Shown one piece after another: positions 25,041 to 32,175 of a stretch of DNA of 64,000 nt. This DNA is from an uncultured bacterium (lineage in GTDB: Bacteria > Chlamydiota > Chlamydiia > Chlamydiales > SM23-39): positions 1,888,001 to 1,952,000 of the forward strand of contig OY970323.1 of assembly GCA_963716985.1 (NCBI GenBank), written 5' to 3'. Made by a program: the position numbers and the translations under genes. Under the pieces are notes generated by a model. That model saw only the letters and a list, made by a program, of their open reading frames with translations. It was not told the origin of the DNA and searched no databases. The first letter of the stretch is position 1; every line of letters starts with the position of its first letter.

Positions 25041-25069
25041 TTGACAGAAAGTTATTCTGAAGTCATTAT
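25041..25069 (+). promoter_or_regulatory. Sigma70/sigma66-like promoter, repeated at about 25923 and 26519
   Basis: TTGACA-17 nt-CATTAT upstream of each 'A' gene copy. Confidence 0.5.
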
Positions 25070-25100
25070 TTTCCCCATAAATTTTAATCGCGAGGTGCAA

Positions 25101-25511
25101 ATGACAGCTACAGAAAGTTCTCCTTCATTGGGTTCAATTTTGAAAATAGCAGGGGTCGGTGGATGTGTCGTAGGAGGAACCCTCATGGGAGGTCCTGTCA
25201 TTGGTGTTGTGGGAGGTGCTGCCGGATTGACTGTTTTGGCAATAAACGCCATTTGTAAGGAAAAAAATGTTAGGAGTGTTGAAGAAAATAGTGCAACAGC
25301 TGTTGGGCTACTGATTAGCTGTACCATCAGTTTGATAAGCACTGTAGTTTTTCAAAATGCATCTTCTTCGGAATGTGGAAAAATGCACCAGAATTCCGAT
25401 AGTAATTTTTTTCAAGCAACATGTTATGGTTCTTCCGCCTTGTATTATGTGAGCATCGCGAGCGTAATTTATTTCATTGGAAGCGCCGCGATCTGGAAAT
25501 TTTTTCGTTAG
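25101..25511 (+). CDS. Small Gly-rich membrane protein, copy A1
   Basis: MTATESSPSLG...; long hydrophobic stretches; GAGGT RBS. Confidence 0.8.
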   Translation: MTATESSPSLGSILKIAGVGGCVVGGTLMGGPVIGVVGGAAGLTVLAINAICKEKNVRSVEENSATAVGLLISCTISLISTVVFQNASSSECGKMHQNSDSNFFQATCYGSSALYYVSIASVIYFIGSAAIWKFFR

Positions 25512-25521
25512 GAGGATAAAA

Positions 25522-25854
25522 ATGAGCACAACAAATAGTGTTCTTTGTTTTTCCCCAATTAAAGAATGGCAAAATTTTAAAGAAAGCTACCAAGCATGGG
25601 GGCAAATACTTCCCAAAAGCATTAAGGAAAACGCTAAAATTCTGTTAATTGCAAATGCTGGTTTTTTGATTATAGCCGCAATTTTTGCATATATAGGCTT
25701 TCCAAACCCCGATGTACGGCTTGCTGTATTGGGTTCTTTTGGTATCATTCTTCTTTGCGACCTGGCATTTTGTTTTATCATGCAAGGTTTTCTCGTTTTA
25801 AGGATCGTTCAAGCATTTTGTCCTTTTTCTTTTTTAACGAAAGCTGATCGATAA
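25522..25854 (+). CDS. Small membrane protein, gene B
   Basis: AGGAGG RBS, two hydrophobic segments; followed by hairpin GCGTAGTGC...GCACTACGC. Confidence 0.75.
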   Translation: MSTTNSVLCFSPIKEWQNFKESYQAWGQILPKSIKENAKILLIANAGFLIIAAIFAYIGFPNPDVRLAVLGSFGIILLCDLAFCFIMQGFLVLRIVQAFCPFSFLTKADR

Positions 25855-25984
25855 GGCGTAGTGCAGTAGCAGAGCACTACGCGTCTCCCTATTACTCTGA
25901 ATTGCGACCAATCTGACCTTCCTTGACAGAAAGCTATTCCGGGTTCATTATTTTTCCCATAAATTTGAACCATGGAGTGTAATA

Positions 25985-26395
25985 ATGACAGCTACAGAAA
26001 GTTCTCCTTCATTAGGATCTATGTTTGGGATAGCCGGGGTCGGTGGATGTGTTGTTGGAGGAACCCTCATGGGAGGCCCTATCGTAGGTTTTTTTGCTGG
26101 TGCTGCCGGATTGACTGTTTTGGCAGTAAACGCCATTTATAAGGAAAAAAATGTTAGGAGTGTTGAAGAAAATAGTGCAACAGCTATTGGGCTACTGATT
26201 AGCTGTACCATCAGTTTGATAAGCACTGTAGTTTTTCAAAAAGCCTCTTCTTCGGAATGTGGAAAAATGCAACAGAATTCCGATAGTAATTTTTTCCAAG
26301 CAACATGTTATGGTTCTTCCGCCTTGTATTATGTGAGCATCGCGAGCGTAATTTATTTCTTTGGAAGCGCTGCGATCTGGAAATTATCTCATTAG
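25985..26395 (+). CDS. Small membrane protein, copy A2
   Basis: Paralog of A1. Confidence 0.8.
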   Translation: MTATESSPSLGSMFGIAGVGGCVVGGTLMGGPIVGFFAGAAGLTVLAVNAIYKEKNVRSVEENSATAIGLLISCTISLISTVVFQKASSSECGKMQQNSDSNFFQATCYGSSALYYVSIASVIYFFGSAAIWKLSH

Positions 26396-26580
26396 AAGGA
26401 TCGTTCAAGCATTTTGTCCTTTTTCTTTTTTAACGAAAGCTGATCGATAAGGCGTAGTGCAGTAGCAGAGCACTACGCGTCTCCCTACTACTCTGAATTG
26501 CGACCAATCTGACCTTCCTTGACAGAAAGCTATTCCGGGTTCATTATTTTTCCCATAAATTTGAACCATGGAGTGTAATA

Positions 26581-26991
26581 ATGACAGCTACAGAAAGTTC
26601 TCCTTCATTAGGATCTATGTTTGGGATAGCCGGGGTCGGTGGATGTGTTGTTGGAGGAACCCTCATGGGAGGCCCTATCGTAGGTTTTTTTGCTGGTGCT
26701 GCCGGATTGACTGTTTTGGCAGTAAACGCCATTTATAAGGAAAAAAATGTTAGGAGTGTTGAAGAAAATAGTGCAACAGCTATTGGGCTACTGATTAGCT
26801 GTACCATCAGTTTGATAAGCACTGTAGTTTTTCAAAAAGCCTCTTCTTCGGAATGTGGAAAAATGCAACAGAATTCCGATAGTAATTTTTTCCAAGCAAC
26901 ATGTTATGGTTCTTCCGCCTTGTATTATGTGAGCATCGCGAGCGTAATTTATTTCTTTGGAAGCGCTGCGATCTGGAAATTATCTCATTAG
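26581..26991 (+). CDS. Small membrane protein, copy A3
   Basis: Identical protein to A2. Confidence 0.8.
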   Translation: MTATESSPSLGSMFGIAGVGGCVVGGTLMGGPIVGFFAGAAGLTVLAVNAIYKEKNVRSVEENSATAIGLLISCTISLISTVVFQKASSSECGKMQQNSDSNFFQATCYGSSALYYVSIASVIYFFGSAAIWKLSH

Positions 26992-27082: not shown

Positions 27083-27490
27083 GTCGGGTAGCCCAAGGGA
27101 ACTTCCCCCTTAGGCTCCCACGGATCCGTACGTGAAACTCTCGTTTCATACGGCTCTTATTATTCAGCAAGGAGGTTTCACCATTTTCCAATGCCCATAT
27201 AGCTGAGGATTGTTTTTCGCAACTTTCCCCAACAGATTCATGGCTCTTCCAAAGTGTCCTCTCATCTTTTTATACTTCCTTTTTACCCATCTCGTTAATT
27301 CCTCATTTACGTGATAAAGGACTGGTCTCATTTCAGATCTGAAAAATCTGCCATAGTAATTGATCCACCCTCGTACTATAGGATTGATTTCTCTGGCCAG
27401 TTCTTCCAACGTTTTCCGAGTGGCCAGATGCAATCTCCACTTCCTGATAGTCTCGTACATCTTCTTCTTTGCCTTATTGCTCACAGCTGA
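27083..27490 (-). mobile_element. 3' remnant of an RT-encoding group II intron (maturase C-terminus, DV, DVI)
   Basis: DV GAGCCGTATGAAACGAGAGTTTCACGTACGGATC (27123-27156), DVI ending CTACCCGAC; maturase peptide LAREINPIVRGWINYYGRF. Confidence 0.92.
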
Positions 27491-27632
27491 TCGATAAAGT
27501 GCTGCGGCAATAGCAGAGCACTGGATCTTCATACTGCTCTGCAAACAATAGATGAACCACCAGGACTTTTTCCTTGAATTCAGTAGGAAAGAGCGATGAT
27601 CCAATTCATGCGCATTCCAGAATAGGCAATTC

Positions 27633-28737: not shown

Positions 28738-28768
28738 AAAAAAACCCAACCACCAACAGCGATTAGGG
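28738..28768 (-). terminator. Downstream part of the tRNA-Lys rho-independent terminator, split by IS607
   Basis: Reconstructed empty site AAACCCTAATCGC-TGTTG-GTGGTTGGGTTTTTTT forms a hairpin plus U-tract. Confidence 0.65.
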
Positions 28769-28840
28769 CTTGTAGCAGCTTGATAAAATATGCGTAAATT
28801 TGAGAAAATTTATGCAAATTTGCATAGGTATTAAGAAAAA

Positions 28841-29452
28841 ATGAAAATAAGTATTGGCAAGGCGGCTTCCCTCCTTGGAGTTTCAAAGGATACCCTTCGA
28901 AGATGGGAAAGAGAGGGCAAGATCCATTCCAAAAGAACCGTCAAAGGTCACAGACGATATGATGACGGTGAACTCACCGGCCTGAAGCGAAGGGGCAGTC
29001 CGGACAACAAAATCACGCTCGGATATGCCAGAGTCTCTTCCTATGATCAAAAAGAGGATCTCCAAAGACAAGTAGCGCTTCTTGAATCCTACTGTGCTGC
29101 CAATGGCTGGTCTTGTGAAATTCTCCAAGATCTCGGATCGGGTCTCAACTATCAAAAAAAAGGTTTGAAGCTTTTGATCAAAAGAATATGCTCTTCTGAT
29201 ATTCAAAGGCTGGTGTTGACCCACAAAGATCGCCTCCTTAGATTTGGATCGGAGCTGATCTTTTCACTCTGTGAGCAATTTGGCGTGGAGGTAGTGATCA
29301 TCAATGCTTCGGAAAACACCTCTTTTGAAGATGACCTTGTCCAAGATGTTTTGGAGATCATAACGGTATTCTCGGCAAGACTCTACGGATCAAGATCAAA
29401 AAAGAATAAAAAACTTATAGAGTCTCTGAAAAATGCAGCAGAAAGATTGTAA
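28841..29452 (+). CDS. tnpA: IS607 transposase (MerR-like HTH + serine recombinase)
   Basis: AASLLGVSKDTLRRWE, GYARVSS..QKEDL.RQ, DRLLRFG, VFSARLYG. Confidence 0.95.
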   Translation: MKISIGKAASLLGVSKDTLRRWEREGKIHSKRTVKGHRRYDDGELTGLKRRGSPDNKITLGYARVSSYDQKEDLQRQVALLESYCAANGWSCEILQDLGSGLNYQKKGLKLLIKRICSSDIQRLVLTHKDRLLRFGSELIFSLCEQFGVEVVIINASENTSFEDDLVQDVLEIITVFSARLYGSRSKKNKKLIESLKNAAERL

Positions 29453-30959
29453 AAAAACCTTCACCTACCAAACAAGGCTCCCGATTCTTACCGAAAAAGA
29501 GGATCTTTTTCTATCTCAAACAGCAACTCTTCTCTCAAAAGTGGAAAGAACTCTTTTTGCAGATTTTTCCAAGGCCAAAAAACTCAACGATCTCAAATCC
29601 ATCTATCTTGAAAAATTTTCCATCACGGCAAGACAGTTCAATTCTTGCCGGATCTCTCTGGAAGGAAAAATCCGATCTTACCAAGAGGGACTGAAAGAAA
29701 GAATCTCTCTTTTGAAAACAAAAATCCAAAAACTGGAAAAGCATGTAAAAAGCTGCAAAGATCCCTCTAAAAAGCATCAAAAAAAGCGCAGGCTTTTCAT
29801 CTTGAAAACCACTCAAAAAAATCTGGAAAAAGATCAAGAAGAGGGAAAGGTCCGTATCTGTTTCGGGGGGAAGAATCTTTTTCATCAACAATTCCATCTC
29901 GAAGAAAATGGTTTTACTCAATTTTCCGAGTGGAAAAAGACCTGGCAAGAAAAAAGAAACAATCAGTTTTTCCTCATAGGATCCAAAGATGAAACAGCCG
30001 GCAATCAAAGCTGCCAACTGTCGAAAGAAGGAGGCCTCTTCACTCTCCACCTTCGTCTGCCCAATGGTTTTTCCGAAAAAACCCTTGCGATCAAGGGAAT
30101 CGATTTTTCCTACGGAAAAGAAGAGATCGAACAGGCTCTTGAAGAAAACGAAAAGAGAAGAAATCTCCGATTGGCAAAACAGCCCTATACAGATATTGGA
30201 AGAGCCCTCAACTATCGATTTTTAAAAGACAAAAAAGGCTGGAGGTTCTTCATCAGCCTAGAACAAAGATCTCCCGCAAAAAAAAGCAAAAATGCATTGG
30301 GTACGATCGGGATCGATATCAACGCCAATCATCTGGCCCTAGCAGAAACGGATCGATTCGGAAACATCATTGAAAAAAAGAGCATTCCCTGTTCCACCTA
30401 TGGCAAAAGCACAAACGCTCGTCTTGCCATTATCGGAGATGTCAGCAAAGAGATCGTAGAATATGCCCTTCAAAAAGAAAAACCCCTTGTTCTGGAAGAT
30501 CTGAACTTCCAAAAGAAAAAACAAACCCTGAGAGAATCCAATAACAAATATAGCCGGCTCCTCTCCTCTTTTTCCTACAGCCAAATCCTAAGCCACATAG
30601 AATCTAAAGCTTTTAGAGAGGGAATCGAAATCTACCATGTAAATCCCGCCTATACAACAATCATAGGAGAGGTAAAATTCACAAAAAGATATGGGCTGTC
30701 GAAACATCATGCGGCAGCTTTCGTCATCGCAAGACGAAAAGATGGTTTTTCAGAAAAGCCTCCTCGATATCTAGAAATAGATACAGAAAACTCCAAGTCC
30801 GCTTTTTCCCAACCCGTGTGGAAGACGGAAAAACACGTTTGGTGTTTTTATAGGGCGCTAAGTAAGAAGAAAAAAGCGGCACATGCAGTGCATTTACCGA
30901 CGAAAAGATCCTCAAAACAATTGAGAGACAGCCGGAAGGCTTCGGTAGATTATGGGTGA
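29433..30959 (+). CDS. tnpB: Long TnpB-family RuvC protein without a C-terminal zinc finger
   Basis: RuvC-I GIDIN, RuvC-II VLEDL, NPAYTTIIG, HHAAAFVIARR; overlaps the tnpA stop. Confidence 0.88.
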   Translation: MQQKDCKKTFTYQTRLPILTEKEDLFLSQTATLLSKVERTLFADFSKAKKLNDLKSIYLEKFSITARQFNSCRISLEGKIRSYQEGLKERISLLKTKIQKLEKHVKSCKDPSKKHQKKRRLFILKTTQKNLEKDQEEGKVRICFGGKNLFHQQFHLEENGFTQFSEWKKTWQEKRNNQFFLIGSKDETAGNQSCQLSKEGGLFTLHLRLPNGFSEKTLAIKGIDFSYGKEEIEQALEENEKRRNLRLAKQPYTDIGRALNYRFLKDKKGWRFFISLEQRSPAKKSKNALGTIGIDINANHLALAETDRFGNIIEKKSIPCSTYGKSTNARLAIIGDVSKEIVEYALQKEKPLVLEDLNFQKKKQTLRESNNKYSRLLSSFSYSQILSHIESKAFREGIEIYHVNPAYTTIIGEVKFTKRYGLSKHHAAAFVIARRKDGFSEKPPRYLEIDTENSKSAFSQPVWKTEKHVWCFYRALSKKKKAAHAVHLPTKRSSKQLRDSRKASVDYG

Positions 30960-31058
30960 AAAACCATACGCGAATCGCCAACAAAACTGCTTGGTTGGCG
31001 TATCAATGCAAATTTTTAAAATACCCGTATTTGCATAGATTTTTAGTAGCGGTTTAGA

Positions 31059-31131
31059 TGAGACTTGAAGGATTTGAACCTTCGACCTACTCCTTAAAAG
31101 GGAGTTGCTCTACCAGCTGAGCTAAAGTCTC
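31059..31131 (-). tRNA. tRNA-Lys(TTT)
   Basis: Revcomp GAGACTTTAGCTCAGCTGGTAGAGC...CT TTT AA...GGTTCAAATCCTTCAAGTCTCA. Confidence 0.93.
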
Positions 31132-31143
31132 TAAACATAAAAT

Positions 31144-31218
31144 TGACCCCAAGGGGATTCGAACCCCTGTTGACGGAATGAAAATCCGGTGTCCTAGACC
31201 TGGCTAGACGATGGGGCC
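31144..31218 (-). tRNA. tRNA-Glu(TTC)
   Basis: Revcomp GGCCCCATCGTCTAGCCAGGTCTAGGAC...TT TTC AT...GGTTCGAATCCCCTTGGGGTCA. Confidence 0.93.
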
Positions 31219-31219
31219 A

Positions 31220-31570
31220 TCATTCTATCGACAGAGCTGCCCTCATTCCTTTAGAGATGGAAGAGAAGCTCTGCTCCTTTATTGTTAAAGTTTACAAACG
31301 GGGGGTTAATTCCCCCTAGCAGTTACCTGCAATCTCCGGTTTCCCGGGTAAAGTTCCCCTCGCCAAAGTTATGGAACGGTTTTAAATGTTAGCGGCACTG
31401 GTTTAACCCGTACGCCTGTTTAACCACTAACCGCAGAGCTTGGAACTGATGCGGCATCCCAAGGTGCCTATATATTCGCTCCTAACGTAGTCTCAAACGT
31501 AGAGACTTAAGGCTGGCCAACTTCATGCTTGATTACGCAAGCATCTCCCTTCAGGGAGTGGTGATTGGCC
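31220..31570 (-). ncRNA. Stand-alone HEARO/IscB-type omegaRNA element (no iscB ORF)
   Basis: Revcomp GGCCAATCACCACTCCCTGAAGGGAG.TGCTTG...GTTGGCCAGCCTTAAG...CTACGTT...ATAGGCACC..GGATGC...CAGTTCC..GCTCTGCGG...TAAACAG...CAGTG...TAACTTTGGCGAGG...TTTACC, followed by a degenerate end hairpin. Confidence 0.85.
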
Positions 31571-31623
31571 TTTAGTTAAAAGACAGACTAATTTTAAACT
31601 CTTTCCTCTTTTCCCACAAGGAA

Positions 31624-32175
31624 TTAGATCTCAATGATCTCCTTTTCCTTGGAAGTGCAAATCGTATCGCTCTCCTTGCAGAACTGATCGGTCAGCTCTT
31701 GAATTTTCTTTTCGAGCCTCTTGACGCCATCTTCGGAAAGGTCCCCGCTCGATTTTTCCTTCTTCACCTGTTCATTGTATTTGCGTCGAATTTCTCGCAG
31801 CACAATCTTGGTATTCTCTGTTCTTTTTTTGCACTCTTTGACCATCTCTTTTCGAATCGACTCGTCCATCGGAGGAACAAGAACGCGCACCACATTGTGA
31901 TCTACTTGTGTCTGCACGTTGAGATTCGCACCATCAATGGCCTTCGCAATAGCATTGCAATTCTGGCGATCAAATGGCGTAATGACGATCTGTCTTGACT
32001 CGGGCACCGTGATATTGGCCAGACTCTTTAATGGCATAGGAGTATGATAGACATCGACTCGTACGTGATCCAAAATTGCAGGATTCGCACGTCCTGTTCT
32101 CAGAGTTTTTAGATCTTGCTTAAAATGCTCGATCGCCGCCTGCATGGCAGCCTTTGTTTCTTTCTCTATATCCAT
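31624..32175 (-). CDS. frr: Ribosome recycling factor
   Basis: LRTGRANP; operon context. Confidence 0.97.
   Translation of the reverse strand: MDIEKETKAAMQAAIEHFKQDLKTLRTGRANPAILDHVRVDVYHTPMPLKSLANITVPESRQIVITPFDRQNCNAIAKAIDGANLNVQTQVDHNVVRVLVPPMDESIRKEMVKECKKRTENTKIVLREIRRKYNEQVKKEKSSGDLSEDGVKRLEKKIQELTDQFCKESDTICTSKEKEIIEI

Follow-up and report, generated by a model that had tools for sequence, protein, structure and literature searches.

Weinberg in 2009 and Altae-Tran in 2021 are said to have described HEAROs without an ORF and stand-alone omegaRNAs that act in trans. ISC transposons, among them ISC1-1_MA and ISC2-1_MS, have a 5'-GTCA terminus and subterminal hairpins and insert 5' of ATGA without target duplication, as the available text of Kapitonov et al. 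(2016, PMC4810608) describes them. The closest counterparts of the present element are the Geobacillus PATEs related to ISGst1 and ISGst5. According to the available portions of Meers et al. (bioRxiv 10.1101/2023.03.14.532601), these PATEs have no protein gene and carry ends like those of nuclease-bearing copies. They need the nuclease in trans, take the guide from the flank outside the element and are transcribed in sense from a start outside it, IscB omegaRNAs relying on host transcription for the guide. In the same text the TTCAT motif of ISGst5 corresponds to ATGAA on the RNA strand. Neither an ORF-less omegaRNA PATE nor an N|ATGA target is new, going by the available text of these two papers. 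Our literature search turned up neither an omegaRNA placed in a tRNA leader nor IscB elements from Chlamydiota, although supplements may list such cases.

The locus described here lies in a window of 64,000 nt, the whole stretch of DNA that was analysed (contig OY970323.1, positions 1,888,001 to 1,952,000), in the 2.07-Mb single-contig genome of an uncultured member of the Chlamydiales. Chlamydial NCBIfam matches in the genome agree with this placement. The locus holds a non-autonomous mini-transposon of the IscB family (ISC, IS200/IS605), inserted 5' of ATGA, with no duplication of the target, between the predicted promoter of tRNA-Glu and the tRNA (Table 1). An ORF-less guide-RNA element is a known type, and this one is unusual only in its position. 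The spacer between frr and tRNA-Glu is 405 nt long, rather than the 350 nt of the initial annotation, and the element accounts for 346 nt. The IscB omegaRNA motif set recognized in that annotation is present in order on the minus strand, and the HEARO covariance model (Rfam RF02033), which had been proposed as a check, gives a match of 131.6 bits (gathering score 83, E 4.9e-27) over model positions 1-211, i.e. a full-length HEARO/omegaRNA. No further Rfam family matches in the spacer. A nuclease ORF had also been reported as missing; no ORF of at least 60 aa occurs in the spacer, and no iscB lies within 1.7 kb downstream of the omegaRNA. Because this adjacent downstream ORF is absent, the element is a PATE rather than a full ISC element, and it differs in the same respect from HEARO RNAs with an adjacent HNH ORF and from the ISC transposons in the available text of PMC4810608.

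The 5' terminus is GCCAA in this copy and GTCAA in the sister copies, which thus share GTCA, together with the subterminal hairpins, with the ISC transposons. Both ends are homologous to those of iscB-bearing copies (5' E 1.6e-18, 3' E 2.7e-11, with genome-built profiles that include the tRNA-Glu copy itself), and the homology is also seen by direct alignment. In the terminal transposon end the 7-bp outer stem is preserved via a double change, while the DNA-guide tetranucleotide is lost. On the minus strand ATGA (31223-31220) is followed by T31219 and then by G31218, the first base of tRNA-Glu, in agreement with the initial placement of ATGA one base ahead of the tRNA. The exact boundary rests on the sister copies because no relative is close enough to provide a base-exact empty site; in the same-genus genome G001 the sequence at the insertion position reads TTGAT.

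Table 1. Features of the frr/tRNA-Glu locus (window coordinates)
Feature	Position	Strand	Basis or remark
frr (ribosome recycling factor), upstream neighbour	31624..32175	-	TIGR00496, 172.5 bits
Predicted -35 box TTGTGG of tRNA-Glu/Lys promoter	31614..31619	-	sigma70-type motif, upstream of element
Predicted -10 box TAAAAT	31591..31596	-	sigma70-type motif, 17-nt spacer from -35
Predicted 15-nt guide GTCTTTTAACTAAAG, host flank	31570..31584	-	boundary from sister copies; predicted start site
ORF-less ISC mini-transposon (PATE), 346 nt	31224..31569	-	sister-copy alignment; empty spacer in 28 relatives
HEARO/omegaRNA core; family-conserved hairpins go on to about 31318	31348..31569	-	RF02033, alignments, covariation
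G-C hairpin with weakened T tail (4 T in 8)	31291..31316	-	terminator-like in ORF-less sisters; no terminator called here
Terminal transposon end: AAGGAG, 7-bp outer stem, decayed inner hairpin	31232..31279	-	alignment
Host-derived ATGA target/TAM, fifth base T	31220..31223	-	N|ATGA target in the available text of PMC4810608
tRNA-Glu(TTC)	31144..31218	-	sole Glu tRNA among 41 in genome
tRNA-Lys(TTT)	31059..31131	-	sole Lys tRNA among 41 in genome

The element had been called an orphan, a description that does not hold, as the copy belongs to a mobile family of ORF-less elements. The search for iscB and further copies that the initial annotation had suggested gives two full-length IscB and 11 HEARO matches in the genome, nine of them above the cut-off. 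Two of these matches lead into iscB, six are complete ORF-less minis (the tRNA-Glu copy included), one has an internal deletion and two are truncated. The IscB proteins are 442 aa long, score 434-438 bits against NF040563 (cut-off 175) and contain the PLMP, RuvC and HNH motifs, so the full-length copies are of the ISC2 type (RuvC plus HNH) in the available text of PMC4810608. Both iscB genes look intact and could act in trans (one is at C1:166410-167738), and the omegaRNA cores linked to them are 90% identical to that of the tRNA-Glu copy.

A 3'-end profile search of the genome gives 22 matches at E<=0.0032, of which 21 are followed by ATGA. ATGA is supported as the target motif, as had been proposed, and agrees with N|ATGA in the available text of PMC4810608. 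An ORF of at least 75 aa opens at 19 of the 21 ATGA ends, compared with an expectation of 21-26% outside gene interiors from crude gene calls. The genes opening there include rpsF, V-ATPase E, sctL, adk and ruvC, and G001 has an uninterrupted leader running into ATGAA at three of the sister-copy sites (rpsF, V-ATPase E and sctL). A tRNA follows just one of the 21 ends, that of the tRNA-Glu copy. The fifth base after the insertion is T at this locus (ATGAT), and ATGAA, the motif shared with ISGst5, stands at 18 of the 21 ends.

At most of the 21 ends (for example L001, L005, L006, L008, L009, L010 and L132-L142), AAGGAG lies directly 5' of the 7-bp outer stem, which ends 7-9 nt before the host ATG, and this AAGGAG-stem end often outlasts the loss of the omegaRNA or of the inner hairpin. 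Of 24 assessable ORF-less loci, 11 have a G-C hairpin with at least five T that passes a terminator test, as against none of 14 iscB-linked loci, a contrast biased by the shorter search window for iscB-linked copies; 43 loci were examined, of which four with less than 100 nt of sequence and one internal deletion were not assessable. The tRNA-Glu copy has the hairpin with a tail of only 4 T. Bearing such a G-C hairpin and T tail at the place of iscB, the ORF-less copies here are unlike the PATEs in the available text of Meers et al.

The comparison covers 29 of the 39 relatives that have an frr match. In 28 of these loci tRNA-Glu follows after an element-free spacer of 26-227 nt and in one there is no tRNA-Glu nearby, so that the comparison of empty sites, another check suggested at the outset, finds the element absent from 28/28 relatives in which tRNA-Glu follows frr. 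Ten of 60 relatives have HEARO matches. No tRNA lies just downstream of any of the relatives' 34 HEARO loci or of 44 element ends from the genome collection (63 matches minus 19 set aside by a pattern filter). Outside this genome the best copy reaches 84% over half the length (400 phylum genomes, two candidates each, G065 left out), and no metagenome contig matches the 5' end of the tRNA-Glu copy exactly. ORF-less omegaRNA elements of relatives (L017, L034, L037, L113, L118 and L035) stand at start codons, and next to rpsF in G023. From their N-termini, the genes behind this set are presumably rplB, mdh, nusA, gpsA and dxs. The element's tRNA-side and frr-side junctions are both present in DNA runs, in separate contigs. 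Neither an empty allele nor an excision joint was seen in the four runs examined out of 22, where depth is 2-9 and patchy, too little for this negative to show that such alleles are absent.

According to the available text of PMC3201880, a tetranucleotide at the foot of either end hairpin of IS608 forms pairs with the cleavage site, whose A-2 is required for a robust complex. The corresponding foot is GAAA (GGAA in one copy) in 8/8 other copies compared and is absent from the tRNA-Glu copy, in which terminal TTGAC has also become TTGGC, altering A-2. Because bases relevant to excision are changed at both ends, the tRNA-Glu copy is probably immobile, or stuck. Its place in a tRNA leader and the predicted crippling of both ends distinguish it from the PATEs in the available portions of Meers et al. 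No intact cognate Y1 transposase was identified in the genome, whose IS200/IS605-type tnpA genes are two intron-interrupted IS200-type copies and one frameshifted IS605-type copy. The IS200-type genes (L040 and L041; C1:757416 (+) and 1970077-1970433 (-)) are near-identical and each contain a 1.9-kb group II intron. The intron directly follows the start codon, so production of transposase would depend on splicing; the same intron is found at three other genomic sites. The IS605-type element (L042, L043; C1:55054-56600) pairs its frameshifted tnpA with a long divergent TnpB-like ORF, and its end hairpin resembles that of copy L006.

Since the sole Glu and Lys tRNAs lie downstream, transcription must reach them, and the element is almost certainly transcribed. 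The predicted -35/-10 pair scores 8/12, below the threshold of a stricter promoter scan, where it goes uncalled. In 23 of the 29 loci from relatives, a TTG-N3-17/18-TANNNT motif lies at a distance of 4-40 nt upstream of tRNA-Glu; the shuffle mean is 1.4-3.4, with a maximum of 6 in 2000 shuffles at mean 1.4. In this genome the motif lies upstream of the element and aligns almost base for base with its G001 counterpart. In sigma70 promoters transcription starts about 7 nt past the -10 box, and from this usual geometry +1 is predicted at G31584. No promoter for the tRNA is called on the minus strand inside the element. TAGAAT just before the tRNA was considered by eye as a -10 box and is too near the tRNA to serve. 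The 3' end of the RNA would fall near 31296, giving a 289-nt RNA, or at the RNase P site, giving a 366-nt leader. The one RNA run listed contains 0.05 of the sequence words.

Beyond tRNA-Lys there is an IS607-family element (window about 28770-31052, plus strand) with a serine recombinase (NF033518) and a 508-aa TnpB-like ORF, inserted about 7 nt past the tRNA. With this element past tRNA-Lys and the PATE ahead of tRNA-Glu, RNA-guided-nuclease elements stand on both sides of the essential tRNA pair. The TnpB guide of the IS607-family element would be antisense to the 3' end of tRNA-Lys. The terminator of the tRNA operon has apparently been displaced by this element to 28745-28767 (-), and in G001 a terminator-like hairpin comes directly after tRNA-Lys. 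Elsewhere in the window, a membrane-like ORF of 136-156 aa is present in three near-tandem copies, including an identical pair, at 25041-26991 (+), followed at 27083-27604 (-) by the 3' fragment of a group II intron (RF00029 plus a maturase piece). A truncated omegaRNA remnant (L143, C1:650794-650868 (-)) lies in sense about 160-230 nt upstream of tRNA-Val/tRNA-Asp, and upstream of their promoter-like motif.

OgeuIscB requires a guide of about 14-16 nt according to the available text of PMC9640706, and the guide here is probably about 15 nt. Its origin in the 5' flank outside the element, as first proposed, is supported by the element boundary in the sister copies. The 20-mer originally given was probably too long and its register one base short: because the element starts at GCCAA, the guide ends in ...ACTAAAG, one base further on, with G as the last base. 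Followed by ATGA, the guide reproduces the empty junction of the element itself. At other sites of the genome, the best seed next to a TAM is 7 nt (30 shuffled guides give 5-10) and the best match to the 15-nt guide is 11 (10-13 for 30 shuffled guides). The exact 19-mer of guide plus ATGA is found in 10 viral contig records, which represent four distinct sequences, and two control 19-mers are found in 1 and 3 records; none of the 28 viral and metagenome matches extends even one base 5'. A host or viral target was accordingly rejected, with nothing above chance in genome, viral or metagenome contigs. The guide fits only its own empty junction and therefore points to selfish homing and not to a host guide. 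The reconstructed leader is 26 nt long, and its flank is about 11 nt longer than that of G001; leaders of relatives vary from 8 to 32 nt. Self-pairing is possible for the predicted guide (pair probability about 0.24), as is pairing with the scaffold.

The fold predicted for the RNA has a free energy of -120.8 kcal/mol (z -3.57; 0/100 shuffles as stable), and 27 of 69 pairs in the consensus helices covary across 12 copies. The tRNA-Glu copy keeps the covarying helices, save for a register shift in one hairpin. The A-2 change at the terminus is offset by a compensating change in the first RNA helix (GCC/GGC). The 12 private changes include two compensatory pairs, an outcome reached in 108 of 100000 simulations that treat substitutions as independent; the number of newly broken pairs is by itself not significant (P 0.06-0.14). 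The fold has been kept while transposase-recognition bases were lost at both ends, which hints at selection with modest statistics, and template switching could produce the double changes in one step.

We favour, at slightly better than an even chance, a selfish ISC PATE that is stuck, transcribed as a pre-tRNA leader and likely still guiding IscB to its own empty site. A Y1 transposase acting in trans would have placed the element 5' of ATGA ahead of tRNA-Glu. Initiation at the tRNA promoter would leave about 15 nt of guide on the omegaRNA, whose 3' end would be set either by partial termination (about 289 nt) or through cleavage by RNase P (366 nt). IscB encoded elsewhere in the genome would load this RNA and cut element-free alleles, favouring copying back of the element (homing). 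For an immobile copy the remaining benefit, if any, would be selfish defence against replacement by the empty allele. The target itself may be absent from the population, as no empty allele or excision joint appears in the four low-depth runs. The flank reads ATGAT rather than ATGAA, the TAM of these IscB being itself predicted, and the lack of an intact cognate transposase, the possible self-folding of the guide and a variant at 31549 also count against this reading. The variant would break the closing pair of the first hairpin and is carried by one contig in each of two of the three covering DNA runs. It favours the view that the element is an inert passenger, a stuck PATE transcribed only because the tRNAs must be and no longer guiding IscB, which we take as a serious possibility well short of even; the non-consensus fifth TAM base suits such a passenger as well. 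Its fold could have persisted through limited age, through self-correction of hairpins by template switching or because a compact leader suits pre-tRNA folding. Several changes in the end raise the complementarity between its two arms, as template switching would, and the first helix of a decayed locus in another genome (L121, G397:C72) carries this GCC/GGC double change too, alongside an altered end guide, which is unique among the relatives' 34 loci. Many remnants of the family in the genome are plainly decayed. In the multiple alignment, the core has 10/224 private changes and the end 16/56 (about 8-10/55 when alignment slip is allowed for, p 0.0015-0.012 against the core), a contrast that speaks against an inert passenger. 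It is modest in pairwise comparison, with 10/54 end and 22/249 core positions differing from L002 (p 0.049) and p 0.17 against L001. L001, with an equally long core branch, has 0/56 private changes in its end. The younger ORF-less copies L005, L007 and L009 have 2-3 pairs broken each, by indels or mismatches, whereas the three apparent breaks in the tRNA-Glu copy come from a shifted register within one hairpin, which forms nonetheless. Both comparisons again argue for more than passive carriage.

A domesticated, host-expressed guide RNA that steers IscB to foreign DNA or a locus of the host seems very unlikely to us. In its favour, the copy is probably immobilized, lies downstream of a predicted tRNA promoter, has a workable guide length and keeps its fold, and since the flank is longer than that of G001, part of the guide could come from elsewhere. 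The seed and guide matches in the genome, however, stay within the range of shuffled guides, the viral and metagenome matches never extend 5' and control 19-mers also find records, the leader is within the range of the relatives, and the element is not conserved at the tRNA-Glu site in any relative examined. Of the initial proposal of a host guide for an IscB encoded elsewhere, the nuclease part stands, with two IscB in the genome, and the guide part has found no host-useful target. Somewhat less improbable, and still unlikely, is an early stage of domestication, in which selection on the RNA keeps an excision-disabled, helix-repaired omegaRNA with a 15-nt guide, made by the tRNA promoter and RNase P. 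As to the source of the transcript, rpsB, tsf, pyrH, frr and tRNA-Glu are all co-directional and the interval from frr to the element has no called terminator, which together with a tRNA promoter of just 8/12, missed by the strict scan, would be compatible with an RNA made mainly by read-through and given its 5' end by processing. Against this, the promoter motif is conserved in position far above chance and nearly base for base with G001; the conserved tRNA promoter is the likelier driver, and we give read-through the smallest probability of all. The element is sense to the tRNA, as first described, with the rpsB operon the less likely source of its transcription.

An inert RNA would make the locus an ordinary transposon remnant. 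If the early-domestication reading were true, it would be a natural tRNA-processed guide cassette for IscB in trans, homing without transposing. As the one copy without a protein gene behind it, the tRNA-Glu locus is a natural control for the idea that the element end serves as a ribosome-binding site. Natural omegaRNAs seldom have predictable 5' and 3' ends, but base-exact predictions are possible for the two ends at this locus. With essential single-copy tRNAs downstream of the element, the RNA is almost certainly made, and the locus therefore offers a clean way to ask whether the activity of an ORF-less omegaRNA outlasts the mobility of its element.
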